DNA of 64,000 nucleotides from a bacterium (GCA_963674695.2 CAXXGI010000003.1:544001-608000); one strand, 5' to 3'. Counted from the stretch's first letter, positions 8,989 through 35,090 are shown. Notes: generated by a model not told the origin, from the sequence alone. Program-made: numbers and translations.

Positions 8989-8997
8989 ACCCATCGA

Positions 8998-10949: not shown

Positions 10950-10977
10950 CTGTCAACCGGGCATTATGTGCAAACAT

Positions 10978-11128: not shown

Positions 11129-11137
11129 GAGGGGCGG

Positions 11138-13496: not shown

Positions 13497-13625
13497 TGCC
13501 CCCCCCCTTCGATTCGATGTGAAAGTTGCCGATCCATAGCATGGGCCTAAAAAAACGCAAGTGTTACCAGAGGGTTTGACAGGAACCGCCGAGTTCACAT
13601 AAAGAGGATTATCAGTATGAACGAT

Positions 13626-13771
13626 GTCATTCCCGCGGAGGCGGGGATCTCGATTGTTGGGGAACATCGAGATCCCCGCCTCCGCGGGGATGACAAAGAG
13701 CCTTGGGGATGACAAAGAGCCTTGGGGATGACAAAGAGCCTTGGGGATGACAAAGAACTCGCCAGGATGAC
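13626..13771. repeat. REP doublet followed by tandem 19-bp copies of its end (GGGGATGACAAAGAGCCTT)
   Basis: Three perfect units plus degenerate copies directly upstream of the RBS of the second OPT gene. Confidence 0.85.
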
Positions 13772-13789
13772 AAACGAAAAGGAGACCAC

Positions 13790-15790
13790 ATGGCCACATC
13801 ATTTCAACCGTATGTTCCCGAAAAGACGAGTTTGCCGGAGCTGACCGTCAAAGCGGTCGTGCTCGGCGTGCTCATGGCGGTGGTTCTCGGCGCGGCCAAC
13901 GCCTATCTCGGGCTCAAGGCCGGCATGACCATTTCGGCAGCCTTTCCCGCGGCGGTGATCGCCATGGCCGCCTTTCGCCTCCCCTTCCTGCGCGGCAACG
14001 TGCTCGAGCAGAACATCGCGCGTACGACCGCCTCGGTGGGCGAAGCGCTGGTGGCCGGTGCCATCTTCACGATTCCGGCGTTCGTCATGGTCAATGTCGC
14101 CGGCCAGCGCCTCTGGACCGAGTTTCATTATTGGGAAGTGGCGATGATCACGCTCATCGGCGGTGTGATGGGCATCCTCTTCGTCATTCTGCTCCGTCGC
14201 ACGCTGGTGGTCGACGCCGACCTCCCCTTTCCCGAGGGGTTTGCCTGTTTTGAGATCGTCAAGACCGGCCAGGGTGGCGATACGGGCGCAAAGTATGTCT
14301 TCGGCGCCATGGGGCTGGGCATCCTGATCGAGATATTCAAGAATCCAAACGGTGTGCCTATCATTCAGGAGACGAAGGAGTTCTTCTTCCGCTTTCCGCG
14401 CTCGATCGTGGGGCATTTCACCAGTGCCAAAGAGACGCTGGGCAGTGTGACGCACGAGGGAGGCATGCCCTTTCTGACACCGCTGGCCTCCCCCGCGCTG
14501 ATGAGCGTTGGCTACATCATCGGGCCGAAATATGCGGCGATCAACTTCTCGGGCGGCGTCCTGGCCTGGCTGGTCTTCATTCCGCTCATCCTCTTCGTCA
14601 ATCCGGGTCTGGCGCAGGACGTGGCGGCAAACGGCATCACGCCCAATCACGGCGATATGGTCTTCTCGGTCTGGTTCAACCTCGTTCGTCCCTTCGCCGT
14701 CGGCGCCATGCTCGTCGGTTCGCTCTACACGCTCTGGGGGTTGCGCACTTCTCTCGGCAGCGCGCTCAAGGGGATCTTTTCAAAGCATCGGCACGAAGAG
14801 GCCAAGACGCATAATCGTATCGAGAAGGATCTCAACCTGCGCTGGGTCTTCATCGCGGCCATGGCGCTCGTGATCCCGATGATCTTCCTCTATCAGTATT
14901 TCACGCAGGATTGGGTCGGCGCGATCGTCGCCGCGTTGGTGATGACGCTCACGGCCTTTCTCTTTGCGGCGGTCGGTGGATGGCTGGTCGGTATCGTCGG
15001 CAACTCGAACCAGCCCGTCTCGGGGCTCACCCTCTCCGCGCTCATCATTGCGGCGGTTGTGCTCGTTGGCTTCGGCGTGAAGGGGATGCCGGGCATCGCG
15101 GCGGTGCTCGCGGTGGCGGCGGTGGTCTGCTGCGTGGCCTGCATGTCGGGCGACATGATCCAGGATCTGAAAGTCGGCCAGCTCCTCGGCGGTACGCCCT
15201 GGAAGATGGAGGTCGGCGAGATCATCGGTACGGTGGTCGTGGCGTTCGTGCTCGTCTTTCCGATCATCATGCTCCACGAGGGGACGCCCGGCGGAATCGG
15301 TGGCGCGCGTCTGCCGGCGCCGCAGGCCGGACTCATGGCGCAGCTCGCCGTCGGTATCGTGGGCGGTCAGATGCCGTGGGGGCTCCTCATCACCGGCATG
15401 TTCTTCGCCGTGGCGCTCATCCTCGTGAAGGCGCCGGCGCCCATGCTCATCGCCGTCGGTATGTACCTTCCCTTCGAGACGACCTTTGCCATCTTCGTCG
15501 GCGGCGTCATCGCCTGGATCGCGGGAATCATTGCGCGACGTCGCGGGATCGAGCGAACCTCGCTCGAAGGTCCGGGCATTCTCGTCGCCTCCGGGTTCAT
15601 CGCGGGCGAAGCGCTCACCGGGGTTTTTCTCGCCGGGCTCGTGCTCGTGGGCATTCCGTCGATCTCGGGTTCGCTCTTCGGCGTCGAGGTGCCCTCGCTG
15701 CTGGGCAGCGCCGGCGGATGGATCTCGCTCGCGGTCTTCGCCATCGTCGCCTACTGCCTCATCTGGATGCCGGTACGGAAGAAGGGGTAG
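13790..15790 (+). CDS. OPT family oligopeptide transporter (paralog)
   Basis: Same OPT motifs: ANAYLGLKAG, LPFPEG, NSNQPVSG, QDLKVG, LPAPQA. Confidence 0.93.
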   Translation: MATSFQPYVPEKTSLPELTVKAVVLGVLMAVVLGAANAYLGLKAGMTISAAFPAAVIAMAAFRLPFLRGNVLEQNIARTTASVGEALVAGAIFTIPAFVMVNVAGQRLWTEFHYWEVAMITLIGGVMGILFVILLRRTLVVDADLPFPEGFACFEIVKTGQGGDTGAKYVFGAMGLGILIEIFKNPNGVPIIQETKEFFFRFPRSIVGHFTSAKETLGSVTHEGGMPFLTPLASPALMSVGYIIGPKYAAINFSGGVLAWLVFIPLILFVNPGLAQDVAANGITPNHGDMVFSVWFNLVRPFAVGAMLVGSLYTLWGLRTSLGSALKGIFSKHRHEEAKTHNRIEKDLNLRWVFIAAMALVIPMIFLYQYFTQDWVGAIVAALVMTLTAFLFAAVGGWLVGIVGNSNQPVSGLTLSALIIAAVVLVGFGVKGMPGIAAVLAVAAVVCCVACMSGDMIQDLKVGQLLGGTPWKMEVGEIIGTVVVAFVLVFPIIMLHEGTPGGIGGARLPAPQAGLMAQLAVGIVGGQMPWGLLITGMFFAVALILVKAPAPMLIAVGMYLPFETTFAIFVGGVIAWIAGIIARRRGIERTSLEGPGILVASGFIAGEALTGVFLAGLVLVGIPSISGSLFGVEVPSLLGSAGGWISLAVFAIVAYCLIWMPVRKKG

Positions 15791-15816
15791 ATGAAAAACG
15801 GATGATGTGAATCTAT

Positions 15817-15850
15817 AACCCCCCGAGCGTTTTTCGCTCGGGGGGTTTTG
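15817..15850. terminator. Intrinsic terminator, probably bidirectional
   Basis: aaccccccgagcg-ttttt-cgctcggggggtt followed by a T-rich tract, between convergent genes. Confidence 0.8.
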
Positions 15851-15877
15851 TTTGTGATGTAGGTGCGGCACGCTTCC

Positions 15878-18800
15878 CTACTCCGCCAATTGTGAGCAGA
15901 TGAGTCCCGCCTTCTGAATGCTGTCGCATTCGCCGGGCAAGCAGTCGCGTCCCATCTCGGCCGGGGAGATCTCCGGATCCCAGAGACCGATCATGCCCAC
16001 CGCGACGGCCAGCGAGTCATCCGCGGGATTGTCATCGCCACGGCAGAGCATCGTGCGTCGGCTGCCCTTGTCGAAGCCATCGCCGAACATGCCGGTCCAG
16101 ACGTGGTGTTCGGTGTCGATCGTCCACGTCCAGCTCTCCGGAGCATCGTTCGGGTTCGCGATGATGAGCGGGCTGCACTCCACATCGTAGATGCGCATGA
16201 GATATTCGTAGTCCCGTTCCTGCTCCTTGCCCAGGATCAGTGGCGCAACCGCGGGGATAACGACCGCGACCATCGTGTTGAGGTCGTTTGGGGTACTATT
16301 GATATATGTCTTCTTCGTCGCACGGTAGGATCCTGTCACGACATGCCCCGGCGGACAGAGGTAACGACTCGGGGCGCCACCGAGTTTATCGAAATCGGCG
16401 TCGTTGAGGGCATCCTGGTGTGTGCCGTAGCCGTAGGCGCGTTCGGGCTGCTGGACGCCGTCCGGATCTTCGTCGAAGCGATAGAGATCGTCGAAGACGT
16501 CGGTGAACGGCTTGTAGATGGGGCGCAAGTATTGGATGGGGAGCGACAGATCCCAATCGGCAGGGAGTATGTCGATGTAATCGATTTCGCTTTCACCGTG
16601 ATTGTGGGATACGGATGGTTCTGCGATGTTGTCGAGGATCTCATCGAGGCTGAGCGTATAGGCGTCGACGTCATAATATGATTCCACGATCGACTGATTG
16701 AGCTCCTGCAGCGCCCTCTTCTTTCCCTCATCACCGCTGAAGTCGACGAAGTTGAACCACCCTTTCACCGTGCCCGCGCGCGCCTTCATCGTGTCCCATT
16801 CGTCGAAGTCCTCGGCCCGCTTCCAGGAGGCGTTGATATCGATCAGGCCGTCCTGGTCGGTGTCGGAGAGCTTGAGGGATTCGAGATAGTAATACCCAGA
16901 CGAAGCGGGGTGAGCGGCATTCTGCAGGACGGCCGCATACGAAGAGAAGTGATCGCGCGACATATCGATGCCTTCATCGAAGGCCTCGATCATCCAAGAC
17001 TTATATTCATCTCCTCGAATAGAGAGCATCACTTCGCCATGCAGAAGCGATTGGATCGACTCAGCGCAACCGGGCTCACCCGCGCACAGGGGATGATCTT
17101 CAGGATTACGCGCGAGGGCCTCGTCGTCGAACATGTTCCCGAGGATGCCGGAGAGGACCTCGCGGGGAAGATCGTTCATAAACAGGCTGTCATAGGGGGT
17201 ATAGAAATGCGCCGGCAGATTCCAGACGGTTCCAGATGCGCGAGCTCCACGCTCTGGCAGGACCGCAAACCCGGTCATGACGAGTCCCTCGTCGGCGATG
17301 TCGGCTTCACCCGCGGCATAGTCCGGCTTGTGGAGGCCATTGGTCGTGAGAAACTTGAGGCCATCCTTGCGTTTGAGCCCGTCCATGCGCATCGTCTGCG
17401 CATTGTCGAACTGATCGACGAGCTGGATGTTGGGGACGTATTGCTGAGCCAGTGAATCTCGAGATCCCCTGCTGCGAACGCCGATGACATCGCGTTCAGA
17501 ACCGATCGTGATCTTCGAGCAGCCCATCTTCCACCGGGTGCCCGTTTCTGTGTCGACATGCGTGCACTCGGAGGCAAGAAGGTGTTTCACCTTGTCATAG
17601 GTCCAATGGGCACAGATGGTGCCGTGACAGTCTTTCTTGCGCTCGTACATGATCGGTCCAGTCCTATCCTTGGGCATGAAGCCGCTCATCCACTCGCTTC
17701 CCGAGGCATCGCCCCAGGGGCCGATGAAGACGGAGACGGTCGCGATGGCCTCGGCTTCGCGTTTGGCGTTGGTCATATAGATCGGCCCATATCGGTTCAC
17801 CTGAATGCACTCGGCAAACATCGCCTTGACCGAACGCTCTTTGCAGGACGCTTTGATGAGATAGTTTCCGCTGTCATCGTATTGAACCGTTCCTTCATCG
17901 TCGAGTTCCATGCAATCCCCGCACTCGTCATCAATCCGATTTTGTGCATACTCCGACCGGGTGAACGCCGTATTGATGCGGTGCAGGATAAAGTCTTCGG
18001 GGCAAAGACGATCGACGGTTGCCTCATCGGCATAGGATGTCACCGTTCGAGACATCTTGGTGAAGGTCTCGCCGACGAACCCCTGCCCGCCCTTGAATTC
18101 ATGGCAGATGACGCCATGGATGCGGGGCGCGCTCGTGCCGGTGATGAGCCCCACGACATAGGCGTCGTCGTCGCCGCAGTCGAATTCCTCTTCTTCCTCT
18201 TCGTCGTCATCTGTAGTGGCGATGAGCTTGCCACGCAGCATGCGGTCGATGCTTCGCTCGAGCGTGATGTCGGCGCTATTGAAGGGACTATCGAAGATCT
18301 GGTACTCCGTGTGCGCATCGCTGCAAGCCACGTTCGTGCGGGCGATTCCAAGACGCGAATCCATCGCGTGGGCTCTCGTCCGTCGGTCGGTGACCGTCTT
18401 GAGGGCGGTGCTCAGATCCGTGCGCAGCGCCACGCATGTTGCCGCAGCTTCTTGTGTCTCGATTCGCTTTGTGGCGATGGCGAGCGTGAGTCCAGCGATC
18501 TCTTCACTCGTCTCCTTCGAGACCGGCAGCTGCATATAATTGATCATCGCGGCACGGGTGAGCGCATCCATGTCGTGATCGACGGATGGATCGACCTGCG
18601 CGACGTTGAGGGCAAAATTGATCTCGCCCTCAAGTCTGAGGCCTTCGATCGTGCCGGGAATGGGATCAAGACAGATCGCAACCTCCTGGCTGAATTCGCG
18701 TTGGAACGCATCAAAGGCGCGTTTGTCTTTGAGTGTGCGCCGTGACGTCCTCAGCTCGTCGTAGCTGGCGGCTGTGGCCAGATCACGAAGCTCGACGAGC

Positions 18801-19702
18801 AGCGCCTGGCTGGCGGGGAAACGCTTTTCATTGAGTTTTCCGAGCGACATCTTGCCCTGCGCGCTTTTGGCATGCGGATTGCCGGCGATGCAGAGATCGA
18901 GGATCGCCTTCTGGCAGCCATCGGCCATGTTCGCGAGCGTGGCATGCGTATCGGCATTGGCATAGGTCAGGATGCGGCGCTGCAACGCTTCGAGGGATGA
19001 CGTGATGTGCTGGCGCAGTCCTTGACAGGTCACGGCCGCTTCATGCGCTCCCATTCGTTTGGTGGCGACAGCCAGCGTGAGGCCTGCGACCTCTTCGCTG
19101 ACCTCCCGTGCGATGGGGAGCTGCATAAAGTTGATCATCGCCGCGCGCGTGAGCTCATCCATCGTGTCATTCTGCGTGGGGTCGGCCTGCACGACATTGA
19201 GGGCGAAGCGAATCTCGCCTTCGAGCGTGGCATTGGGGATCGTTCCGGGAATGCCGTTGAGACAGGAGGCGACGACGTTATCGCTGTCGTTCAGAAATGA
19301 TTCGATGCCACTCATGACGCGAATGTCGTGTTGCGCAGCACGCAGTTCGTCGAAGTGGATCTGCTCGGCGAGACGTCGCAGAGAGACGAGGAGATCCTGG
19401 CTCGAGGCGAAGCGCTGTTCATTGAGTGTACCCAGCGACATCCTGTCGAGGACGCCCGGAGCGCTCGGATCGCCGGCCATGCAACGGTTGCGCATCCCTT
19501 CCGCATCGACCTGGATGACATCGCTGTCACCGCGACGCAGCGGGTCGTCCGCAACGGCGGTGTCATTTCCGCCGACGATGATGCGCGTCTCTTTCGGGGG
19601 CGTGAACCCGGTAATGAGGGTCCCTCCTGCGGCGAGGCTTATGTTCGCACAGAGGGTGGTGGTGAAGATGGTGACGGCAGTGATAATGAGTGATCGACGC
19701 AT
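15878..19702 (-). CDS. Large secreted Cys-rich hypothetical protein with a duplicated ~197-aa N-terminal domain
   Basis: Signal peptide, AGGAGG RBS, clear internal repeat, acidic DDDEEEEEE linker; no recognisable family. Confidence 0.85.
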   Translation of the reverse strand: MRRSLIITAVTIFTTTLCANISLAAGGTLITGFTPPKETRIIVGGNDTAVADDPLRRGDSDVIQVDAEGMRNRCMAGDPSAPGVLDRMSLGTLNEQRFASSQDLLVSLRRLAEQIHFDELRAAQHDIRVMSGIESFLNDSDNVVASCLNGIPGTIPNATLEGEIRFALNVVQADPTQNDTMDELTRAAMINFMQLPIAREVSEEVAGLTLAVATKRMGAHEAAVTCQGLRQHITSSLEALQRRILTYANADTHATLANMADGCQKAILDLCIAGNPHAKSAQGKMSLGKLNEKRFPASQALLVELRDLATAASYDELRTSRRTLKDKRAFDAFQREFSQEVAICLDPIPGTIEGLRLEGEINFALNVAQVDPSVDHDMDALTRAAMINYMQLPVSKETSEEIAGLTLAIATKRIETQEAAATCVALRTDLSTALKTVTDRRTRAHAMDSRLGIARTNVACSDAHTEYQIFDSPFNSADITLERSIDRMLRGKLIATTDDDEEEEEEFDCGDDDAYVVGLITGTSAPRIHGVICHEFKGGQGFVGETFTKMSRTVTSYADEATVDRLCPEDFILHRINTAFTRSEYAQNRIDDECGDCMELDDEGTVQYDDSGNYLIKASCKERSVKAMFAECIQVNRYGPIYMTNAKREAEAIATVSVFIGPWGDASGSEWMSGFMPKDRTGPIMYERKKDCHGTICAHWTYDKVKHLLASECTHVDTETGTRWKMGCSKITIGSERDVIGVRSRGSRDSLAQQYVPNIQLVDQFDNAQTMRMDGLKRKDGLKFLTTNGLHKPDYAAGEADIADEGLVMTGFAVLPERGARASGTVWNLPAHFYTPYDSLFMNDLPREVLSGILGNMFDDEALARNPEDHPLCAGEPGCAESIQSLLHGEVMLSIRGDEYKSWMIEAFDEGIDMSRDHFSSYAAVLQNAAHPASSGYYYLESLKLSDTDQDGLIDINASWKRAEDFDEWDTMKARAGTVKGWFNFVDFSGDEGKKRALQELNQSIVESYYDVDAYTLSLDEILDNIAEPSVSHNHGESEIDYIDILPADWDLSLPIQYLRPIYKPFTDVFDDLYRFDEDPDGVQQPERAYGYGTHQDALNDADFDKLGGAPSRYLCPPGHVVTGSYRATKKTYINSTPNDLNTMVAVVIPAVAPLILGKEQERDYEYLMRIYDVECSPLIIANPNDAPESWTWTIDTEHHVWTGMFGDGFDKGSRRTMLCRGDDNPADDSLAVAVGMIGLWDPEISPAEMGRDCLPGECDSIQKAGLICSQLAE

Positions 19703-19893: not shown

Positions 19894-21135
19894 TCAATCG
19901 TCCAGATCGTCCGTCTGGCCAGGGCTCTCGAACTCATTCCATTCCGCATAGGCAGTGATGGCACGCGTACAGGCTGTTTTTGCCTGCTTGATGTCATTGG
20001 TGAGCGTGCTGGACGTGTATGTTCTCGTTACGGTCTCGATTTCACGAATCCTCTGGAGAAGGTCTGAACGATACGTGGTGCAGCCCTCGGCTGCCGACTT
20101 GAAATAGACGTAGGCCTCGGTTGCATCGGTTTGAACATCCGTTCTCGTATTGGTACAGAATGTTTCTGCGTTTGCCGCACAGGTGGTCTTCTGGCCCTTC
20201 ACATCTCTTTCCAGTGCCTTGAGGGCGTCGTATTCCTGATCGAGCGCATCCAGATAGGAACCCATCTCGTCACAGGAAGCGTTGCGCGATGGTTCGGGTG
20301 TCTGATCCACGTCCAGATCCATGGTGATGGGGGTTCCAGAAAAGACCGGCACCTTCTCTTCATCGGGGATGGCGACTGTCGAGAGATCGGTCCAGGGAGC
20401 CGGGGTGGGAGCGGAGGAGCACAGGACATTGATCCCGATCTTCATAAATGGACTCAGAAGTGCATCCGTTCCGTAGATAAATGAAGGCGTCAGACAGGCA
20501 TCGACGTGTTCTTTGTCAATTCCGCTTTCACGAAAATCGCCAAAAGCTGGTGCGCCCGTGAGTTGATCCTTCGCTTCAACATAGGCGGCCAGTTCAGTGC
20601 TTCTGAACGCAGCGCTCACAGCGGACTGTAGGTCAGTACAGGCCGATCTGAACGTCCTGGTGCGGAGTGTCTCGAGGGATTCATCCCGATCGTTCCCCTC
20701 TTCACATCGCGTGAGCTTCTCCCGCTCATCGATCGCCTCGTCGATATTGCTGCTGCCGATCGAACAGGCCCTGCTTCCGCACGCTGATGCGACCGGTTCA
20801 ATGAGCCCGCCCTCCTCGATCTTCGTGCGCTGGCGTTCGATGTCAGCGAGCGCATCCTCGATATCGTCGGTAATCCGTTCGCAGCTCAGCGTTTCACAGT
20901 CTGGGCCAACGCAGGCCCTATCATCGTCGTCGTCATCATCGCCGGAATTATGGCAAAGCGGGCCCGTGCAGACAAAATCATCGTCATCGCCTCTGTTGAT
21001 ATCGATTTGGGTGTTATCGTCATCGGGTACTGCGGCGGCAGAACCACTGCTCAGGTTGCAGGAAATCATTCCGGCCACCAAGACGCAGGCGACGAGGATC
21101 CCAAAGAGGCGAATGCCGTTCGAATCGTTTTTCAT
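19894..21135 (-). CDS. Cys-rich helical hypothetical lipoprotein
   Basis: MKNDSNGIRLFGILVACVLVAGMIS-C lipobox-like signal; Asp-rich linker; contains a segment resembling the repeat of the neighbouring 1274-aa protein. Confidence 0.8.
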   Translation of the reverse strand: MKNDSNGIRLFGILVACVLVAGMISCNLSSGSAAAVPDDDNTQIDINRGDDDDFVCTGPLCHNSGDDDDDDDRACVGPDCETLSCERITDDIEDALADIERQRTKIEEGGLIEPVASACGSRACSIGSSNIDEAIDEREKLTRCEEGNDRDESLETLRTRTFRSACTDLQSAVSAAFRSTELAAYVEAKDQLTGAPAFGDFRESGIDKEHVDACLTPSFIYGTDALLSPFMKIGINVLCSSAPTPAPWTDLSTVAIPDEEKVPVFSGTPITMDLDVDQTPEPSRNASCDEMGSYLDALDQEYDALKALERDVKGQKTTCAANAETFCTNTRTDVQTDATEAYVYFKSAAEGCTTYRSDLLQRIREIETVTRTYTSSTLTNDIKQAKTACTRAITAYAEWNEFESPGQTDDLDD

Positions 21136-26775: not shown

Positions 26776-29400
26776 TCACGAGTTACGAGTCACGGTTTTC
26801 TTCAACTCCTGCAAGATGGTAAGGGCTTCCAGCGGTGTGGTGGTGTTGGGATCGATGTCGTGGAGGCGGGTGACGACCTCATGCGAGGGCGATTGCGTGA
26901 AGAGTTGAAATTGTGCGGGTTGCGCGGGCGCGGCGTGATCCGTCGCACGATGTCCGCCGATGCGTGGACTGCCGACCTCGTCGAACTCCCCCGCCTCGAG
27001 ATTGGTGAGCACCTCGGTGGCGCGACCGATGACGCCCTCGGGGAGCCCCGCGAGTTTGGCGACCTGGATGCCATAGCTGTGCGAGGTGGCTCCAGGGACG
27101 AGCCGGCGCAGGAAGACGACCTCGCCGTTCCACTCCTTCACCGCGATGTGCATGTTGCGCAGCCCGGTCTTTTGCAGGGCGAGCTCGGTGAGTTCGTGAT
27201 AGTGCGTGGCAAAGAGCGTGCGCGCCCGGACGCGGTCGTGCAGATCCTCGGCTACGGCCCAGGCGATGGCCAATCCGTCGAAGGTGGAGGTGCCTCGCCC
27301 GATCTCGTCGATGATGACGAGGCTTTTGGGCCCCGCTTCGCGCAGAATCGTGGCGGCCTCCGACATCTCCACCATAAAGGTCGACTGACCCTGGGCCAGC
27401 GCATCGGAAGCGCCCACGCGCGTGAAGATGCGGTCAGCCACGCCGATGCGCGCACTCGTTGCGGGGACGAATGAACCGATCTGCGCCATCAGGACGATGA
27501 GCGCGCTCTGTCGCATGACGGTCGATTTCCCCGCCATATTGGGGCCGGTGATGAGCAGCAGCCGGTTGTCGGTATCGTCGAGCAGCACATCGTTTGGCAC
27601 GAAGCGCACGCTGGGATCCATGCGTTCGACGATCGGGTGACGCCCTCCCTGGATATCGATCGCCGAACCGTCATCGACGGTCGGGCGACAATAGTCGTAT
27701 TCGGCGGCGATGCGCGCGAGCCCCGTCAGCGCATCGATGGCGGCGATCGCCTCAGCCGTGGCCTGGAGGCGCGGCGTCGCCTCAGCGATGCGCTCGCGCA
27801 GCGTGACGAAGAGGTCGTATTCGAGCGCGCGCGCCTTTTCCTGTGCGCCCAGGATCGTCTCTTCGCGTTCCTTGAGCTGCGGGGTGATATAGCGTTCCGC
27901 GTTCGCGAGCGTCTGTTTGCGGATGTAGTCGGCGGGGACCTTGTCGCGATGGGCGTTGGTCACCTCGAGGTAGTAGCCGAAGACCTTGTTATAGCGAATT
28001 TTCAGCGAGCTGATCCCGGTCCGTTTGCGCTCTGCCGCCTCGATCGAGGCGATGTAATCCTTTCCGTGATCGATGATGTGGCGCAGCTCATCGAGCCCTT
28101 CATCGATGCCGTTGCGGATGATTCCCCCTTCGCGGATGGTCAGCGGCGGCTCGTCGGCGATGGTCTGCGCGATGGCCTCGATCAGATCATCGGCGGGGTC
28201 GATGCATCCGGCATGCTGGGCGATGAGGCCGGCGCTATCGGCGAGCTGCTCGCGCACGAGGCGCGCGGCGGCGAGCGATTCCCGCAGGGCGAGCAGATCG
28301 CGCGCATTCGCGCTGCCCAGCGCCACGCGCGTGGTGATGCGCTCGAGGTCGTAGATCTCGCGCAGCGTCTCGGGCAGCGCGCGCAGCAGCCCCGGTTCGG
28401 AGAGGATCGAGGCAACCGCCTCCAGGCGTTCCTCGATCGCATCGACGTCGATGAGCGGATAGAGGATCCAGCGCTTGAGCAGACGCGATCCGAGCGCCGT
28501 GGTGGTTCGATCCAACGCGTGCAGGAGCGACCCCTCGCGCTCCCCCGCGGGCATGGTGCGGGTGAGTTCCAGGTTGCGCTTGGTCGCCTCGTCCAGGCGC
28601 ATGGCGTACGCGGCCCTGCCGCTCGAGATGGCGGTGATGTGCCGCAGGTTCCCCCGCTGCGTCTGCTGCAGATAGGAGAGCGTTCGCGCAGCGGCTTGTG
28701 CGGCGACGGGCATGCGTTCGATGAGTGCCGCCCCGCCGGTGAGCGCTTCGAGGGCATCGACGGCGGGTTCGCCATCATCGGTGCTGATGAGAACGTTCGG
28801 GAGTAGCCGCTGGATGCGCGCCATGAGCGATGGATGCTGCGCGCAGGCTTCGTTGACGAGGAGCTCACGCGGTTCGGCGCGGGCGAGCTCTTCGAGAAAT
28901 GCCTCGGGAGTATCGAAGGTATCGGCCTGAAAAAGCCCCGTGGAGATATCGGCGAGCGCCAGACCGAATTGCCCCTTCTCATCCAGGGCAATTCCCGCCA
29001 GGAAATTGTCGGCCGTGGCATCGAGACCAAGGCCATCGGCGACCACCCCCGGGGTGACCACCCGCGTGACCTCGCGTTTGACGACTCCTTTTGCCTGCCG
29101 CGGGTCCTCGACCTGATCGCAGATGGCGACCTTCTCCCCCTTTTCCAGCAGCTTGGCGATATAGGGTTCGATCGAATGATACGGAACGCCGCAGAGCGGG
29201 ATCGGGTTGGGGTCATTCTTGTTTCGAGAGGTTAAAGTGATTTCGAGATGTTTGGATGCAACTACAGCATCATCATAGAACATTTCATAGAAGTCACCGA
29301 GGCGAAAAAGGAGGATCGCATCCGGGTGCTGCGCCTTGATGCTCTGATACTGGCGCAACATCGGTGTGGGCGCATCATTATATGGTGGCTTCTTGGACAT
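26776..29400 (-). CDS. mutS: DNA mismatch repair protein MutS
   Basis: TPMLRQY, GDFYEMF, TGPNMAGKST, DEIGRGT, ATHYHEL, SYGIQVA. Confidence 0.98.
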   Translation of the reverse strand: MSKKPPYNDAPTPMLRQYQSIKAQHPDAILLFRLGDFYEMFYDDAVVASKHLEITLTSRNKNDPNPIPLCGVPYHSIEPYIAKLLEKGEKVAICDQVEDPRQAKGVVKREVTRVVTPGVVADGLGLDATADNFLAGIALDEKGQFGLALADISTGLFQADTFDTPEAFLEELARAEPRELLVNEACAQHPSLMARIQRLLPNVLISTDDGEPAVDALEALTGGAALIERMPVAAQAAARTLSYLQQTQRGNLRHITAISSGRAAYAMRLDEATKRNLELTRTMPAGEREGSLLHALDRTTTALGSRLLKRWILYPLIDVDAIEERLEAVASILSEPGLLRALPETLREIYDLERITTRVALGSANARDLLALRESLAAARLVREQLADSAGLIAQHAGCIDPADDLIEAIAQTIADEPPLTIREGGIIRNGIDEGLDELRHIIDHGKDYIASIEAAERKRTGISSLKIRYNKVFGYYLEVTNAHRDKVPADYIRKQTLANAERYITPQLKEREETILGAQEKARALEYDLFVTLRERIAEATPRLQATAEAIAAIDALTGLARIAAEYDYCRPTVDDGSAIDIQGGRHPIVERMDPSVRFVPNDVLLDDTDNRLLLITGPNMAGKSTVMRQSALIVLMAQIGSFVPATSARIGVADRIFTRVGASDALAQGQSTFMVEMSEAATILREAGPKSLVIIDEIGRGTSTFDGLAIAWAVAEDLHDRVRARTLFATHYHELTELALQKTGLRNMHIAVKEWNGEVVFLRRLVPGATSHSYGIQVAKLAGLPEGVIGRATEVLTNLEAGEFDEVGSPRIGGHRATDHAAPAQPAQFQLFTQSPSHEVVTRLHDIDPNTTTPLEALTILQELKKTVTRNS

Positions 29401-29460
29401 GGAGCCCTTCCATACAAGGGCCGCACCGCAGAATCAAGCGTAGAGCGCATGGTGATCGTT

Positions 29461-29529
29461 GTCATCCCCGTGAAAACGGGGATCTCGATGTTCCGTATAG
29501 AACGAGATTCCCGCGTTCGCGGGAATGAC
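29461..29529. repeat. REP-like palindrome doublet
   Basis: gtcatccccgtgaaaacggggatctc...gagattcccgcgttcgcgggaatgac. Confidence 0.85.
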
Positions 29530-29601
29530 AAAACAAGTCCTCCCCGGTAACAGGCGTTACCGAATATGTTGATATTGAAGGGGAAATCGGACAGCCGCCG
29601 G

Positions 29602-29629
29602 CAACTTTGACCTGTCGCCGAACCGATAA
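29602..29629 (+). promoter_or_regulatory. sigma28-like promoter motif CAAC-N17-CCGATAA
   Basis: caactttgacctgtcgccgaaccgataa, about 32 nt before ATG 29661. Confidence 0.7.
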
Positions 29630-29660
29630 TGTCTACGAGGGGCACGTTTTGGAGGCAACT

Positions 29661-30059
29661 ATGCTGGGACTTCTCGGATGTGGATTTTTGATTGCGGGAA
29701 TCATTTGTGGGGCCGTCGTTGGCGCGACCTCGATGGGCGTTCAGATCCAGGGAGCCATAGATCAAAAGAAAGCGGCTCAGGATAATCTGGAACTTCAGCA
29801 GCAACAGGCGCAGAAGGCGGAGAACAAAGAGGACAAGTTCAACGAATATCAAGAACGCGTGGCCTCGAAGGAGACGCTCACAGCGACGATGAAGGCCAAC
29901 GCGATGATCGGGCGCATCGAGAAACAGACCGACGATGCGCGCAACGGCACGCTGAGCAATCGGCGCAAGGCGAGGAAAGAGGGGCATGGACTCGGCCACC
30001 GGCGCGTGCACACCCCTCGCCCAAGTTATGCCAATCATGGCAAACCGGCACAGGCATGA
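29661..30059 (+). CDS. Cassette protein A1: N-terminal hydrophobic segment, coiled coil, basic tail (132 aa)
   Basis: GGAGG RBS; paralog of 31349-31747 with the same length. Confidence 0.85.
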   Translation: MLGLLGCGFLIAGIICGAVVGATSMGVQIQGAIDQKKAAQDNLELQQQQAQKAENKEDKFNEYQERVASKETLTATMKANAMIGRIEKQTDDARNGTLSNRRKARKEGHGLGHRRVHTPRPSYANHGKPAQA

Positions 30060-30078
30060 TGAAGCGGAAGGAGATCCG

Positions 30079-30678
30079 ATGATCAGCGCGGGATTCATCA
30101 ATCAAAATACGGGACAGCGAACGAATCAGCAGCAGAGCAATCCCTACATGCAGGGCGGCGGCATGGCTCCCCCGCAGGCGGTCGGGCCGAGCTTTCAGCC
30201 GACCTTCGGGCCACAGTGGACCGCCCCCTCCTCTGCGCCGGGGATCAATTTCAAGGCGGAGCTGAGTGAAGCGGATGCCGCCGAGGCGATGCGCTGGGGA
30301 TTCGGGACGCAGATGGCGGGCATGGCGGTGAACACCATCATGCAGGGGTTCAACTACGGTCTCGCCGCCAAGTCGATGGAGTATCAGGCCTCGATCGCAA
30401 ACAAATACTACGACACACAGGAGACGATCGCCGGGTATCAGAAGGAGGTGGCGATCGAGCAGCTCAGCGTCCAGAAGGAAGGCATGGGGATCCAGCAGGA
30501 GATGCATGCCGCACAGATCGAACACGAGAAGGGAATGGCGCGGCTCGAAGGCAACACGCAGGCGCGGCTGAAGATGATCGAAGACCGCGGCAAGACGAAC
30601 CGGGCGAAGATCCTCACGGTGTCGAACGCCTTCGATCGCCGTGGCTGGAGCAACTACGGCATGCCGCACGCGGCATGA
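30079..30678 (+). CDS. Cassette protein B1: Q/P-rich N terminus, hydrophobic helix, coiled coil (199 aa)
   Basis: AAGGAG RBS; paralog of 31766-32365. Confidence 0.85.
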   Translation: MISAGFINQNTGQRTNQQQSNPYMQGGGMAPPQAVGPSFQPTFGPQWTAPSSAPGINFKAELSEADAAEAMRWGFGTQMAGMAVNTIMQGFNYGLAAKSMEYQASIANKYYDTQETIAGYQKEVAIEQLSVQKEGMGIQQEMHAAQIEHEKGMARLEGNTQARLKMIEDRGKTNRAKILTVSNAFDRRGWSNYGMPHAA

Positions 30679-30691
30679 AGGAGCGGAACCT

Positions 30692-31195
30692 ATGAATGAG
30701 ATGATAGCGAATGATCCTCATGCAGAAATTATGTGGCAAGAGTTTGATATCATCGAACAAAATAGTGCCTCCGGAATGGGCGGCGCTTCAGCCGGGATGT
30801 TTGCCTTCGGCGCTACGGTGGCGGCCTTCCAGACCATCGGCGCGGGCGTGGCGTATCACTTTCAGAGCGAGACGCTCGACATCCAGCGCGATACCAAGAT
30901 CGCGGCATACGATCATCAGGAGCGGATGGGCGAGAAGCAGAAGAATATGCAGCTGACCACGCTCAAGGAACAGAAGAAACAGCAACAGAATGCCAAGGTG
31001 GCCAATCAGAAGTATCTGGACGCGCAGCAGAAGCTGGCGCGGGCCAAGGGCGAAAAGACGATCTCCGAGGCCGACCTCAAGGAGGCCAGGCTGACGATGA
31101 AGGCGGGCAAGACCGATGGTCGCGCCCTGGACAAACTCTTCGATCGACGTGGAAACTACCGGTATGGCAACCCCATTGCGCACGGAACCGGTTGA
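30692..31195 (+). CDS. Cassette protein C1: Gly/Ala hydrophobic helix, Q/K coiled coil (167 aa)
   Basis: AAGGAG RBS; paralog of 32382-33005. Confidence 0.85.
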   Translation: MNEMIANDPHAEIMWQEFDIIEQNSASGMGGASAGMFAFGATVAAFQTIGAGVAYHFQSETLDIQRDTKIAAYDHQERMGEKQKNMQLTTLKEQKKQQQNAKVANQKYLDAQQKLARAKGEKTISEADLKEARLTMKAGKTDGRALDKLFDRRGNYRYGNPIAHGTG

Positions 31196-31289
31196 AATGT
31201 AATGTGATTTACTTCAGGCCTCCTCTTTGTGGTGACAGTCCTTTCTTGCAATAAAATGGACTTTAAGCACCATTTCACGCAAATCCACG

Positions 31290-31317
31290 CAACTTCCGAC
31301 TCTCATCCAACCGATAA
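31290..31317 (+). promoter_or_regulatory. sigma28-like promoter motif CAAC-N17-CCGATAA
   Basis: caacttccgactctcatccaaccgataa, about 32 nt before ATG 31349. Confidence 0.7.
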
Positions 31318-31348
31318 TGTCAACGAGGGGTAGAACCACGGAGGCGTT

Positions 31349-31747
31349 ATGCTCGGACTGTTGGGATGCGGATTTTTGATTGCGGGGGTTGTCTGCGGTG
31401 TCGTCTTGGGCGGTGTCAATGCGGCCATGCAGGCCAATGCCGCTGCCGATGCCAAGGATATGGCCAAAAAAGAACAGGCGCTCACCAAAGAGCGCATGAC
31501 CAACGCCGAGAATAAAGAGGACAAGTTCAACGAATACAAGGAACGCATGGCCTCGAAGGAGACGCTCCAGACGACGATGAAGGCGAATGCCCTGATCGGA
31601 CGCGTGGAGAAACAGGCCGAGGATGCGCGCAACGATACGCTGAGCAATCGGCGCAAGGCCTTGAAAGAGGGACATGGGCTGGGCCAGCGGCGCGTACAGA
31701 CCTCACGTCCGAGCTATGCCAACAACGGTCGGCCGGCACAGGCATAA
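31349..31747 (+). CDS. Cassette protein A2 (132 aa)
   Basis: Paralog of A1; GGAGG RBS. Confidence 0.85.
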   Translation: MLGLLGCGFLIAGVVCGVVLGGVNAAMQANAAADAKDMAKKEQALTKERMTNAENKEDKFNEYKERMASKETLQTTMKANALIGRVEKQAEDARNDTLSNRRKALKEGHGLGQRRVQTSRPSYANNGRPAQA

Positions 31748-31765
31748 TTTCCGAAGGGAGCTTTT

Positions 31766-32365
31766 ATGATCGGAGCGGGAAACAACTATCAGTCGACGCA
31801 GACCGCCCAACAAGGCCAGCAGACCAATCCCTATATGCAGGGCGGCGGCATGGCTCCTCCCAGTGCGATGGGGCCGAGCTTTCAGCCGACCTTCGGGCCG
31901 CAGTGGACGGCCCCCACCTCTGCCCCGGGGATCAATTTCAAGGCGGAGTTGGGTACAAAGGAATCGGCCGAGGCGATGCGCTGGGGGTTCGGGACGCAGA
32001 TCGCCGGCATGGCGGTGAACACGATTCTGCAGGGCCTGAACTACGATCTCGCCGCCAAGTCGATGAAGTATCAGGCCTCGATCGCGAACAAATACTATGA
32101 AACGCAGGGGACAATCGCCGGGTATCAGAAGGAAGTGGCGATCGCACAGCTCGGCGTCCAGAAGGAAGGCATGGGGATCCAGCAGGAGATGCATGCCGCG
32201 CAGCTCGATCACGAAAAGTCGATGGCGCGACTCGCAGGAAACACGCAGGCGCGTCTGAAGATGATCGAAGATCGCGGCAAGACGAACCGGGCCAAGATCC
32301 TCACGGTGTCAAATGCGTTCGACCGCCGGGGCTGGAGCAACTACGGAACGCCGCGCGCGGCCTAA
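31766..32365 (+). CDS. Cassette protein B2 (199 aa)
   Basis: Paralog of B1; GGGAG RBS. Confidence 0.85.
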   Translation: MIGAGNNYQSTQTAQQGQQTNPYMQGGGMAPPSAMGPSFQPTFGPQWTAPTSAPGINFKAELGTKESAEAMRWGFGTQIAGMAVNTILQGLNYDLAAKSMKYQASIANKYYETQGTIAGYQKEVAIAQLGVQKEGMGIQQEMHAAQLDHEKSMARLAGNTQARLKMIEDRGKTNRAKILTVSNAFDRRGWSNYGTPRAA

Positions 32366-32381
32366 ATGAGAAGAGGTGTTT

Positions 32382-33005
32382 ATGATTTCGGGTGGAGTAA
32401 TAAATTTTGAGGGTACGACCATTGCGGTCGATCCGACGGGCAACAGCGCAAGTATTGTCACCTGCAACGATACGGGAACGGCATCCATGTTTCAGGGAAG
32501 CAATCAAACGGAAGCCGCATTTGCCTCAGAAAAAGCGTCCTGGAATGCTGCAGGAGGTGGATCTGGCGCTGAAGGCGCCTCCTCCGCCGGCGGCGCCTCT
32601 GCCGGGATGTTTGCCTTTGGTGTCACGGTGGCGGGCTTTCAGACCCTCGGCGCAGCTATCGCCTATGGCCATCAAAAGTCGATGATGAAGACGCAGCACG
32701 AGACGAAGATCATGGGATTCGACCACCAGGAGACGATGGCTGGGAAACAGAGGGATTCACAGCTCAACGACTTCAAGGAGCAGAAGGCCCGACAGACGAA
32801 CGTCAAGGAGGCCAATACAAAGTATCTCGCCGCACAGCAGGAGCTGAAAAAAGCCCAGGGCAACAAGCAGATCTCGGCCGCCGAACTCAAAGAAGCGCGG
32901 ATGACGAAGGCGACGGGGTCGACCGATAAGCGCGCGCTGGACAAGCTCTTCGATACGCGTGGAAAATACCGGTATGGCAACGCCGTCGTGCAAGGTCAGG
33001 CGTGA
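32382..33005 (+). CDS. Cassette protein C2 (207 aa)
   Basis: Paralog of C1 with an unrelated N terminus; GAGGTG RBS. Confidence 0.85.
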   Translation: MISGGVINFEGTTIAVDPTGNSASIVTCNDTGTASMFQGSNQTEAAFASEKASWNAAGGGSGAEGASSAGGASAGMFAFGVTVAGFQTLGAAIAYGHQKSMMKTQHETKIMGFDHQETMAGKQRDSQLNDFKEQKARQTNVKEANTKYLAAQQELKKAQGNKQISAAELKEARMTKATGSTDKRALDKLFDTRGKYRYGNAVVQGQA

Positions 33006-33026
33006 ACGGATGCTGATAATCGAGAT

Positions 33027-33052
33027 CAAATGCCGCCTCTGGGCGGCATTTG
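33027..33052 (+). terminator. Hairpin terminator after the duplicated cassette
   Basis: caaatgccgcc-tctg-ggcggcatttg. Confidence 0.65.
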
Positions 33053-33076
33053 CATATGTGGGCAAAGACTCATGAT

Positions 33077-33164
33077 GTCATCCTGAGCGAGTCCGGGACG
33101 GGCGAGTCGAAGGATCTCATGAGATCCCTCCACTCCCTCGTTTCACTCGATCGGTCGGGATGAC
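33077..33164. repeat. Second-class REP-like element (GTCATCCTGAGCGAG...GAAGGATCTC)
   Basis: Near-identical left half at 46393. Confidence 0.8.
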
Positions 33165-33194
33165 AACCAATATGCGATTGAATTATCTTTCAAT

Positions 33195-33223
33195 TTGACA
33201 CCACACAGGAAGATTCGTAAAAT
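33195..33223 (+). promoter_or_regulatory. sigma70 promoter
   Basis: TTGACA-N17-TAAAAT upstream of ATG 33250. Confidence 0.75.
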
Positions 33224-33249: not shown

Positions 33250-34029
33250 ATGGCCTTTGAACTGAACGACTTTAACGTCATGGAATACCTCTGGGAGACA
33301 CTGGCCAAGACCTCCGACGGCAAGCGCATTCGCTATTCCGCGGTCGATGTCGAGGAACTCTGGCGGATGGGGTTCGTCGATACGCAGCTGGTGAGTCTTG
33401 CCGAATGGAAGGCCGTCTTCGAACCACATCGAAAGGCGGACGGCTCCTATGAAGTGGGCAAGGGGGATTTCCTCGCCCTGGACCGCTATCGCTATAAGGG
33501 CGAGATTCGCATCCCCTTCGATGCGATGCAGATCAACGAGGGGAAATATACCGACGAGGGACTCGACGACCTCATCGCCGCTTCCATCGCCCCCTCCTGC
33601 GGGATGGGCTCCGACAAACTCAAATCCTTTTTCGACGATCTCAAGAATGAATTCCGCGACGCGGGCGGGCTCATCGAAATTCGCGGGACCGCCAAGGAGC
33701 GGATCAGGGCCCTGCTCGATGCGCACCCTTCTCCTCTGCGCAACCTCGAACTCCTGCTCGATCGCATGATCGAATCGGGAGAGGACGCCCTCTTCGCCGA
33801 GGGGATGGAGGTCGATGCGGTCACCATGCAGGCCGCCCGCGAGGTGCAGCATCAGGCCTCGTCGTTCAGCACCACGCCCACCACGCGCGCCGAAACCAAG
33901 GCGTCCGGGCTCAGGGCCTTGGAGAAAAGTCGCAAGAAGAAAGCAGCTGAAGTGCCCTCCCCCGGCGATGAGAAGGAGAAGGTCGACCTCGGAAAGCTCA
34001 AGCGTTCGAAACGTCGTATGCGGGGATGA
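33250..34029 (+). CDS. Hypothetical cytoplasmic protein (259 aa) with a basic C-terminal tail
   Basis: Long ORF with RBS, host-like codon usage and a sigma70 promoter; no family recognised. Confidence 0.8.
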   Translation: MAFELNDFNVMEYLWETLAKTSDGKRIRYSAVDVEELWRMGFVDTQLVSLAEWKAVFEPHRKADGSYEVGKGDFLALDRYRYKGEIRIPFDAMQINEGKYTDEGLDDLIAASIAPSCGMGSDKLKSFFDDLKNEFRDAGGLIEIRGTAKERIRALLDAHPSPLRNLELLLDRMIESGEDALFAEGMEVDAVTMQAAREVQHQASSFSTTPTTRAETKASGLRALEKSRKKKAAEVPSPGDEKEKVDLGKLKRSKRRMRG

Positions 34030-34061
34030 TACAGCAGACCATAGACCATGGACCATACGTT

Positions 34062-34210
34062 GTCATCCCCGCGAACGCGGGAATGACAAAGCCGAGTCCA
34101 TCGAGATTCCCGCGTTCGCGGGAATGACAAAGCCAAGTCCATCGAGATTCCCGCGTTCGCGGGAATGACAAAGCCAAGTCCATCGAGATTCCCGCGTTCA
34201 CGGGAATGAC
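34062..34210. repeat. Tandem array of 41-bp REP-containing units
   Basis: (aaagccaagtccatcgagattcccgcgttcgcgggaatgac) x3 after a first hairpin; the intervening sequences are near-identical. Confidence 0.9.
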
Positions 34211-34221
34211 ACAACTCTTTC

Positions 34222-34569
34222 CTACATCGATTTTGATTCCGGCTCTGACTTGGTCTCTGAAATCTGTCTCACAACGGAGAGTTCGCGTTCGAGCTGGCGG
34301 ATCTTCTTGTTCTTGGAGCGCAGCTCGAGCGTCTTATAGAGCGAGGGCAAGGCTTCGATGATGGCGATAGCCACCATGCCGCTGCAAAAGCTGATGAGCA
34401 GCACAAACCCCATCGGGATCGGAACCGAACGCAGGGAGAAGATATAGGGAATGGAAAAGCTGAAGACGACCTTGTAGCCCAGCGCTGCATCGCCCAGGTT
34501 GCAGTAGATGAAGTTGAGCAGCATGAAGAAGAGCAGCGCCATGATGAGCGCAAAGACCAATCGTTTCAT
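34222..34569 (-). CDS. LapA (DUF1049) family membrane protein
   Basis: Two TM segments followed by a KIRQLEREL coiled coil; downstream of ihfB. Confidence 0.75.
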   Translation of the reverse strand: MKRLVFALIMALLFFMLLNFIYCNLGDAALGYKVVFSFSIPYIFSLRSVPIPMGFVLLISFCSGMVAIAIIEALPSLYKTLELRSKNKKIRQLERELSVVRQISETKSEPESKSM

Positions 34570-35090
34570 CGGGAGCCTCCTGATTCCTGCATTGACTTCG
34601 CCATGTCGTTGAATCCCTCTACCAAACGATCATAAGTGTTGGCAAGGTACTCCGGCATCGAGCGCGTATCGCCGAGGATCGGTAGAAAATTGGTGTCGCC
34701 GCACCAGCGCGGAACGACGTGCAGATGCACATGATCGGCGATCCCTGCGCCGGCGACTTTGCCGATGTTGAAGCCGCAATTGAATCCCTCGGCTTCAATC
34801 CTCTCTTCCATGATGGCGACGGACTTCGCCGCAAGCGCCATCATCTCGGCGTTTTCTTCCCCAGAGAGATCGGAGAGCTTTCCCGTGTGCTGATACGGGA
34901 TGATCATCAGGTGGCCGTTGTTGTAGGGAAAGCGGTTCATCAGGACATAACAGGTTGTGCCGCGATGCAGGATGAGACGATCACGATCTTGGTCAGTTTG
35001 TTGCACCAGCTCACAGAAGATACAGCCACTGCTCTTGTCGCGCAGCTCCTCGATGAACTGCATGCGCCATGGTGCCCACAACTGGTTCAT
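34566..35090 (-). CDS. HIT family hydrolase (Ap4A hydrolase-like)
   Basis: LWAPWR, CIFC, NRFPYNNGHL, HVHLHVVPRW. Confidence 0.92.
   Translation of the reverse strand: MNQLWAPWRMQFIEELRDKSSGCIFCELVQQTDQDRDRLILHRGTTCYVLMNRFPYNNGHLMIIPYQHTGKLSDLSGEENAEMMALAAKSVAIMEERIEAEGFNCGFNIGKVAGAGIADHVHLHVVPRWCGDTNFLPILGDTRSMPEYLANTYDRLVEGFNDMAKSMQESGGSR

Follow-up and report, generated by a model that had tools for sequence, protein, structure and literature searches.

Three closely spaced genes, here called A, B and C, occur twice in tandem in a 64,000-nucleotide (nt) stretch of bacterial DNA (GCA_963674695.2, CAXXGI010000003.1:544001-608000; hereafter the window). The described systems that bear comparison with them are the late flagellar operons transcribed by sigma-28, the translocators of type III secretion systems, the b and b' subunits of ATP synthase, phage spanins and conduit proteins, and the tripartite alpha-pore-forming toxins. 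In the flagellar hierarchy, sigma-28 promoters drive the late genes, which encode the exported filament-class proteins, stators and chemotaxis proteins; in model organisms, the -35 element of these promoters is of the TAAA type. Known translocators have 300-600 amino acids (aa) and one or two internal transmembrane helices. The b and b' subunits of ATP synthase are tandem paralogs that form a heteromer, and we know of no conserved YGxP tail as a feature of b subunits. Toxin components of the Hbl, Nhe and AhlABC class have a ClyA-like fold, a length of about 350-450 aa and Sec signals.

Like the sigma-28 late flagellar operons, A-B-C has a promoter whose -10 element fits the consensus of that class and which belongs to a large regulon, distinct from the TTGACA/TAAAAT housekeeping class, in a genome that carries a FliA-like sigma gene beside fliG-fliQ. 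It differs from them in its -35 element, GCAACT, in products that match no flagellar family, in a genome where no flagellin or rod motif was detected, and in a sigma factor that scores under the curated FliA cut-off. With the type III translocators (YopB/YopD, IpaB/IpaC), the proteins share a hydrophobic segment followed by a coiled coil, the absence of a Sec signal, adjacent genes and a genome that encodes a type III export apparatus (FlhA/SctV, FlhB/SctU, FliI/SctN, FliP, FliQ). However, the present proteins are less than half the usual translocator size (B and C have 167-207 aa), B has no transmembrane helix and C a marginal one, whereas A starts with one, and no translocator family is matched. 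In addition, the neighbours are mutS and a gene that we call D, no gene for a TPR chaperone is adjacent, and the apparatus is flagellar in its gene content (FliG, FliM, FliO).

The likeness to ATP synthase b/b' lies in A, which combines an N-terminal transmembrane helix with one long helix and whose profile weakly matches subunit b (E 0.014); unlike b/b', the present operon encodes three paralogs, of which only A has a true transmembrane helix, with no atp genes at the locus and no match to Pfam ATP-synt_B. Phage i-spanins (Rz), phiX174 H, Rip1 and Gp27 (PDB 9vvp) are likewise small proteins with a hydrophobic or amphipathic N-terminus and a long helix that form membrane oligomers, but the matches of A-B-C to such proteins are sub-threshold or inconsistent, there is no phage context, the operon is vertically inherited, and PADLOC gives no match. 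The tripartite toxins resemble A-B-C in that their three genes are neighbours and encode related helical proteins, each with a single hydrophobic stretch; the proteins described here, in contrast, have 132-207 aa and no Pfam match, and their genes lie at a core locus rather than an accessory toxin locus.

The reading towards which we lean, with somewhat less than even confidence, is that A-B-C encodes a membrane-anchored, hetero-oligomeric helical complex, made as one of the late products of a flagellum-derived type III secretion system. It draws on the common plan of the three proteins, on the promoter ahead of their genes, and on the export apparatus encoded elsewhere in the genome.

A tandemly duplicated operon at a conserved site

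The unit promoter-A-B-C is present twice in tandem on the plus strand, at 29601-33052 of the window (Table 1). The A and B regions of the two copies form direct repeats at a spacing of 1687/1688 nt (D1, 300 nt, 87% nucleotide identity; D3, 247 nt, 82%), the promoter block a further one (D8, 42 nt, 79%). The larger offset of the C genes (D2, 70% identity), 1810 nt, reflects about 40 additional N-terminal codons in C2. At the protein level, the copies share 88 of 132 residues in A (67%), 156 of 179 in B (87%) and 76 of 130 in C (58%), C2 being about 40 residues longer than C1 at the N-terminus. A Shine-Dalgarno-like stretch precedes all six genes, and the gaps between genes within the operon measure 13-19 nt. 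The stem-loop that follows C2 was missed by a consensus terminator scan because its T-tail is weak. These results uphold the description in a first-pass annotation of this DNA, which had reported the tandem repeat, intact genes of 132/132 (A), 199/199 (B) and 167/207 (C) aa with a ribosome-binding site each, a CAAC-N17-CCGATAA motif in each copy and a hairpin closing the array. The length of 207 aa holds from ATG 32382, and the hairpin has a stem of 11 bp.

A short-read contig of 1701 nt from one run (X1), which may derive from the same sample as the assembly, matches 30483-32183 without differences and thus spans the point where the two copies meet. Comparison of the copies by the Nei-Gojobori method gave dN/dS ratios of 0.29 for A, 0.28 for B and 0.42 for C, at dS values of 0.88, 0.42 and 0.75, respectively. 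With ratios of 0.28-0.42 at this degree of synonymous divergence, the duplication is therefore old, and both copies are retained under purifying selection. The tandem duplication itself is an ordinary event, and the second copy probably provides a diverged variant of the same complex.

When B1 was used as a query, 20 of 41 genomes (the present genome and 40 relatives) gave a match, including 11 of the 12 in its own family. A B profile found matches in 26 of the 93 genomes in a sample of the phylum, that is, in its own order and in three further families; within the order, the counts are 11 of 12, 3 of 4, 1 of 1 and 4 of 4 for families f1 to f4. In this one order of an uncultured phylum the site has the layout mutS, A-B-C, D, followed by a lapA-like gene and a gene for a HIT-family protein. 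The four genes A-B-C-D stand in this order on one strand in 15 of the 17 loci of relatives; the remaining two have A-B-C with D elsewhere and A-B-D, respectively. The order of the triplet, whose conservation had been put forward as a check, is thus shared by relatives. At the locus of one relative (G016; locus L025, 8055-11078), a 1007-aa open reading frame (ORF) of unknown kind lies between C and D.

Two full-length B genes were found in the present genome only, both in the 41-genome and in the 93-genome search, and the duplication is therefore particular to this genome. Consequently, the earlier idea of a system kept as two diverged variants applies to this organism, but the relatives are single-copy. 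Judged from its distribution, A-B-C is a normally single-copy, vertically inherited operon at a fixed housekeeping site and not a mobile or toxin-like island.

A, B and C as paralogs of one orphan family

Ortholog profiles of A, B and C were built from 18-19 sequences each and compared by hhalign. B and C align with a probability of 98.6% (E 1.3e-15, 132 columns) and A and C with one of 96.7% (E 4.4e-10, 120 columns); for A and B, the probability is 69%. The alignments are in register from the Gly/Ala-rich hydrophobic segment through the C-terminal R-x-x-Y-x-Y-G-x-P tail, in which the glycine is invariant across all three ortholog alignments. By this profile comparison, A, B and C are ancient paralogs within one orphan family. 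The first-pass annotation had recognized the common architecture, and kinship at the profile level extends that view; its remark that the three proteins are not obviously alignable, however, does not hold for profiles.

In the common plan, a Gly/Ala-rich hydrophobic segment near the N-terminus precedes a helix of some 120 residues, and the R-x-x-Y-x-Y-G-x-P tail follows; in B1, for instance, a weakly hydrophobic Gly/Ala segment (residues 79-97) is followed by the long helix and the tail RRGWSNYGMPHAA. The three proteins differ in the strength of the hydrophobic segment. Scored by the best 19-residue Kyte-Doolittle window (KD19), the two copies reach 2.45/2.52 in A, 1.47/1.57 in C and 0.76/0.89 in B. 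Among orthologs, KD19 at the extreme N-terminus of A is at least 1.70 in 19 of 19 sequences, while the best KD19 ranges from 0.79 to 1.57 in C (18 sequences) and from 0.45 to 1.61 in B (19 sequences). A true transmembrane helix is thus predicted in A only, the hydrophobic segments of B and C being weakened; of the earlier claim that each protein has a hydrophobic stretch, the shared Gly/Ala-rich segment stands, but transmembrane strength is confined to A. The portion of A on the C-terminal side of the segment carries a net positive charge in 15 of 19 orthologs.

In B and C, a disordered extension forms the N-terminus; in many orthologs, its first residues are M-I-(S/A/G)-(A/G)-G. In an AlphaFold model of B, residues 1-60 are unstructured and residues 64-182 form a single helix, at low confidence overall (mean pLDDT 51, rising to 75-85 at residues 140-180). 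A complex prediction for A, C and B together scored 0.61 against 0.52 for one control, which weighs neither for nor against binding.

A sigma-28-type promoter and its regulon

The sequence GCAACT-N16-CCGATAA, which contains the motif recognized earlier, precedes A with invariant spacing in every one of 19 loci, namely 17 loci of relatives and the two copies in the window, at 21-49 nt from the A start codon; the same motif is found before three of seven more distant A-like genes. In all 19 loci, NCCGATAA stands upstream of A, in agreement with the -10 element of the sigma-28 class. PMC12784957 gives GCCGATAA as the common -10 consensus of sigma-28-regulated promoters, and the -10 box (A/G/T/C)CCGATAA of the A promoters fits this consensus. 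D, on the other hand, carries TTGACA-17-TAAAAT; a canonical housekeeping promoter therefore exists in this genome, and the CCGATAA class is to be assigned to an alternative sigma factor. We predict that the A-B-C promoter is of the sigma-28/FliA type and dependent on such a factor.

This promoter class is widespread in the genome. A slightly looser pattern, CAAC[TA][TC]-N11-15-[CG]CGATA[AT], has 96 sites, compared with 3-6 in each of five shuffled versions, and 78 of the 96 are followed within 250 nt by a ribosome-binding site and an ORF. In a sample of 20 of these 78 products, 16 lack a Pfam match at an E value of 0.01 or below, a seventeenth shows a sub-threshold match only, and the remaining three comprise one M23 peptidase, one amylase/CBM48 protein and one HEAT-repeat protein. 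The window contains four more such sites, each ahead of a gene without a Pfam family (Table 1).

The pentapeptide M-[ILMF]-[GSA]-[AG]-G, with which B and C start in many orthologs, also starts other proteins driven by sigma-28-type promoters. A promoter of this class lies within 260 nt of 5 of the 15 other candidate starts bearing the pentapeptide, as against 159 of 11,921 remaining candidates (Fisher p 1.2e-6), in a list of candidate starts that holds many spurious ones. The pentapeptide is a candidate recognition or export signal.

A flagellar-type export apparatus elsewhere in the genome

A gene for a FliA/WhiG-like sigma factor, with Sigma70 regions 2 and 4 and the best TIGR02479 match of the genome, heads a cluster that lies outside the window (Table 1). 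On the same strand, directly 3' of the sigma gene, follow a 165-aa ORF without a family and genes for FliG (M and C domains), FliH, FliI/SctN, a FliJ/YscO-like protein, a FliK-like protein (below the cut-off), FliM, FliN, FliO, FliP and FliQ. Homologs of FlhA/SctV and FlhB/SctU are encoded away from this cluster, and the genome also holds three secretins. FlhA is found in 40 of the 41 genomes searched. The sole TPR chaperone-like gene seen is in the apparatus cluster, on the same contig as A-B-C and about 550 kb from it. The earlier statement that no secretion genes are adjacent is thus correct, but the genome encodes a flagellar-type type III export apparatus at another site.

In this genome, rated 100% complete, Flagellin_N gave no match and neither did Flg_bb_rod, the N-terminal motif of rod and hook proteins, while both searches were positive in four flagellated controls; highly diverged axial proteins could escape either search. 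As read from its gene content, the genome combines a flagellar-type export apparatus with a C-ring and a regulon of the FliA-like type, but neither flagellin nor the rod/hook N-terminal motif was detected. The cluster may represent a flagellum-derived secretion apparatus without a known filament.

Searches for known families

Searches of Pfam, NCBIfam, PHROGs and PADLOC returned nothing above threshold for the six A, B and C proteins or for D. In particular, no translocator family was found for any of the six in Pfam (E up to 1) or NCBIfam (E up to 0.1), and the same two libraries gave no needle, flagellar axial or chaperone family. The best PADLOC matches (E 0.008-0.024) are to coiled-coil parts of JetC and other proteins and point to no defence system. 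A match to a known non-secreted family, which the first-pass annotation had named as evidence against its proposal, did not turn up in the Pfam, NCBIfam, PHROG, PDB-profile or PADLOC searches; the likeness that it had drawn to type III translocators, alpha-pore-forming toxins and phage pilot proteins found no match to these families either, and PHROG results are inconsistent among orthologs.

A1 matches PHROG 2867, annotated as a virion structural protein, with E 4.1e-5. Among orthologs, however, phrog_2867 is matched by only 1 of 19 A proteins, a PHROG of Rz-like spanins (phrog_1403) is matched by 4 of 19 (best E 8.2e-5), and no family is matched by more than one of the 18 C sequences. Compared with PDB sequences, the profiles gave 16 weak matches for A, none for B, three for C and eight for D. 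The A profile matches phage Gp27 (E 0.0028) and, over about 100 residues, subunit b of ATP synthase (E 0.014-0.016); phiX174 H (E 0.26) and Rip1 (E 0.87) are further weak look-alikes of the A-B-C proteins. Rip1 is described in PMC13434031 as a pore-forming anti-phage protein. These look-alikes resemble A, B and C in plan (a hydrophobic head, a long helix, a membrane oligomer) and are not evidence of kinship. For B, the nearest clusters in the ESM Atlas are viral hypothetical proteins with a score of 0.84, which is below the 0.9 mark and thus a lead only. A homolog search with B returned 14 proteins, none with a name or a Pfam domain. By protein searches and family libraries, and with no literature search aimed at it, the A/B/C family appears undescribed.

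Interpretation of the A-B-C operon

The promoter type suggests that A-B-C is switched on together with the flagellum-like secretion machine. In the complex that we favour, A, B and C would be made in equal amounts from their tightly spaced genes, and their long helices would assemble into a hetero-oligomeric stalk or bundle. A, which opens directly with a transmembrane helix, fits insertion into the cell's own membrane and would anchor the assembly in the cytoplasmic membrane, while the small-residue segments of B and C might pack against the A helix or lie on the membrane. The aromatic-Gly-Pro tails could then form a common docking tip some 15-18 nm from the membrane. Production of the complex within the late sigma-28-type regulon of about 100 promoters would couple it to the flagellum-derived type III export apparatus.

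Several points weigh against this reading. The association of A, B and C is putative, and the use of GCAACT-N16-CCGATAA as a promoter is a prediction from sequence. The conserved -35 element GCAACT differs from the TAAA-type element of model organisms, and the sigma gene reaches 132.7 bits on TIGR02479, below the curated FliA cut-off of 189.6. Scores of hhalign between coiled-coil-like sequences may be inflated by composition, the fold model of B has low confidence, and a single long helix is the default output for such sequences. The charges flanking the A helix are near zero in orthologs, which leaves the topology of A unsettled. Finally, the N-termini of B and C, which lack a Sec signal, are rich in Ser, Thr, Asn and Gln and carry the regulon-enriched pentapeptide, would fit type III export as well.

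This last point leads to an alternative that we consider rather unlikely, namely that B and C are themselves late substrates which the flagellum-derived apparatus exports instead of the flagellin and hook-associated proteins that are missing; this adapts the secreted translocon or pore proposed in the first-pass annotation. Together, perhaps, with further M-I-x-A-G proteins of the regulon, B and C would then form an extracellular or target-membrane structure such as a minimal translocon, pore or tip, and A would remain behind as an anchor or assembly factor. Sigma-28 controls late export substrates. Since the operon has a promoter of this type, and since its genome encodes a type III export apparatus but yielded neither flagellin nor a rod motif, B and C may be exported. 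The two proteins have neither a Sec signal nor a true transmembrane helix, and the first 60 residues of B, for which no structure is predicted, carry a conserved short motif. The N-terminal pentapeptide is enriched in the regulon (5/15 versus 159/11,921), but the list of starts behind this count holds many spurious ones; phiX174 H, Rip1 and phage Gp27 are oligomeric conduit or pore proteins, but the PDB matches to them are below significance. The lack of a Pfam family in 16 of the 20 regulon products sampled is usual for effectors, whereas A, B and C themselves match no translocator, needle, flagellar axial or chaperone family, have 130-210 aa as against the 300-600 aa of translocators, and are separated by about 550 kb from the only chaperone-like TPR gene seen. 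Moreover, the N-terminal transmembrane helix of A would direct this protein into the cell's own membrane, and the family is present in 26 of 93 genomes while the apparatus marker FlhA is present in 40 of 41.

Alternatively, A, B and C could form a cytoplasmic coiled coil of the peripheral-stalk type, as ATP synthase b/b' or FliH/SctL do, in the type III apparatus or in another membrane machine, anchored by A and with tails that bind a soluble partner such as D. The weak match of the A profile to ATP synthase b comes with the same plan, but it is sub-threshold and unaccompanied by Pfam ATP-synt_B. The net positive charge of A after its hydrophobic segment and the lack of a Sec-type export signal in B and C would agree with a cytoplasmic location; the operon lies outside the apparatus cluster, however. 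As for the partner, D is an invariant neighbour, yet it has its own sigma-70-type promoter 3' of the stem-loop and is therefore a separate transcription unit, and it occurs in 79 of 93 genomes as compared with 26 of 93 for A/B/C. We judge a peripheral stalk distinctly unlikely.

Equally improbable in our estimation is a more far-reaching combination, in which A, B and C are the conserved late output of a flagellum-derived type III machine that would have lost flagellin and the recognizable rod and hook family while keeping late-gene control of the FliA type: B and C, exported by virtue of the M-I-x-A-G signal at their N-termini that other regulon members share, would build a new kind of minimal helical conduit or translocon on a base of A, in two interchangeable variants.

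That the genes are a phage module domesticated long ago, encoding spanin- or holin-like lysis proteins or virion ejection or pilot proteins, is very improbable: the matches of A1 to PHROG 2867, of 4 of 19 A proteins to the Rz-like spanin PHROG and of the A profile to Gp27, like the viral Atlas clusters of B, are offset by inconsistent PHROG matches across A and C orthologs and an Atlas score below 0.9, no capsid, terminase, endolysin or integrase gene was seen at the locus, and the operon, with a promoter of the host regulon, keeps its site and order beside housekeeping genes throughout the order.

Neighbouring gene D, repeat elements and feature coordinates

D is the best conserved gene of the locus, with 39-60% identity among relatives, and its distribution extends to 59 of the 63 high-quality genomes of the phylum sample. 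Some other families have multiple D paralogs in tandem, sited among genes for small Gln/Met/Ala-rich helical proteins. The tail ..RSxKGMRG ends every D protein of the order. Homologs of D number 215 in a set of 5.8 billion proteins and 146 representative clusters in a set of 1.84 billion; all are unnamed or termed hypothetical, and none among the 120 matches listed has a Pfam domain. D-profile matches to large proteins were rejected as spurious, being due to Cna_B repeats. The fold model of D (pLDDT 76) comprises two helical domains together with a coiled coil and a basic tail. It gave no Foldseek match at E up to 0.001 in PDB or BFVD, where only weak EF-hand-like rows appeared; its best VIA-align wide Z, 4.9, is inside the tool's stated noise, and the ESM Atlas had no usable match. 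TTGACA-17-TAAAAT stands upstream of D in 7 of 16 loci. D is tied to A-B-C by conserved adjacency only.

A palindromic element of the REP/MITE type separates the cassette from D, and further copies flank both (Table 1). These elements belong to a highly abundant repeat family, as contig depth in three metagenome runs from a single study is 39-925 in the bins with the three copies and about 2-27 elsewhere, two empty bins of run X3 aside. Elsewhere in the genome, at 123917-126133 of contig 1 and at 17724-17975 and 755800-756879 of contig 3, long open frames are made up of one heptapeptide in repeat (a frame with HRSPFTV and another with SRVTSHE), which suggests a 21-nt tandem repeat family dispersed through the genome.

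Table 1. Positions of the A-B-C cassettes, their flanks and related features (window coordinates unless a contig is named)
Feature	Position	Strand	Description
mutS	26776..29400	-	Conserved upstream flank, divergent from A
Copy 1 promoter	29601..29629	+	Predicted sigma-28 (FliA)-type; GCAACT-N16-CCGATAA, 31 nt before A1 start
A1	29661..30059	+	132 aa; predicted N-terminal transmembrane helix (residues 1-29), long helix, basic tail ending ..SYANHGKPAQA
B1	30079..30678	+	199 aa; start MISAG; Gln/Pro/Gly-rich disordered N-terminus
C1	30692..31195	+	167 aa; Gly/Ala-rich segment 36-54 (KD19 1.47), long helix, tail RRGNYRYGNP..
Copy 2 promoter	31289..31317	+	Predicted sigma-28-type; GCAACTTCCGACTCTCATCCAACCGATAA
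A2	31349..31747	+	132 aa; 67% identity to A1
B2	31766..32365	+	199 aa; start MIGAG; 87% identity to B1 over 179 residues
C2	32382..33005	+	207 aa from ATG 32382, start MISGG; alternative GTG 32376 gives 209 aa; 58% identity to C1 over 130 residues
Stem-loop	33027..33052	+	11 bp, loop TCTG, 3' of C2; terminator-like, weak T-tail
REP/MITE-like palindromic element	33071..33165		Ends GTCATCC...GGATGAC; between cassette and D
D promoter	33195..33223	+	Predicted sigma-70-type; TTGACA-17-TAAAAT, 11/12 matches
D	33250..34029	+	259 aa; conserved neighbour; two predicted helical domains, basic tail ..RSxKGMRG
Further REP/MITE-like copies	29459-29531, 34048-34211		Flank cassette and D; core ATTCCCGCGTTCGCGGGAATGACA
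LapA-domain membrane protein	34222..34569	-	Conserved downstream flank, convergent with D
HIT-family protein	34566..35090	-	Conserved downstream flank, convergent with D
Four further window sites	19751, 21237, 51817, 56581	-	Sigma-28-type pattern
Genes behind these four sites	15878-19702, 19894-21135, 50561-51751, 55732-56520	-	No Pfam family
Pentapeptide starts	Window 30079, 31766, 32382; contig 1: 61763; contig 3: 180885, 443615, 716750, 995453		M-[ILMF]-[GSA]-[AG]-G
FliA/WhiG-like sigma gene	Contig 3, 8530-9399		Best TIGR02479 match of the genome
Sigma-fliG-fliQ cluster	Contig 3, 8530-18300 (locus L079, 531-10271)		Outside the window

Significance

The A/B/C family has a clear signature, consisting of three paralogs predicted to be co-transcribed, an invariant promoter architecture and an aromatic-Gly-Pro C-terminal tail, and it is confined to part of one uncultured phylum. 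Its predicted regulation ties it to a genome with a flagellar-type export apparatus, a C-ring, a FliA-like sigma factor, about 100 promoters of the corresponding type and no detectable flagellin or rod motif. If the complex is merely a lineage-specific scaffold of the cell envelope, the family would be of modest interest. If, on the other hand, it is an output or accessory of the apparatus, the operon would provide a clonable handle on flagellum-derived secretion after the loss of motility and would bear on the origin of the injectisome. Should exported B and C indeed build a conduit on A, this conduit would be an undescribed output structure of a flagellar-type export apparatus, and the organism would offer a living intermediate between the flagellum and the injectisome.

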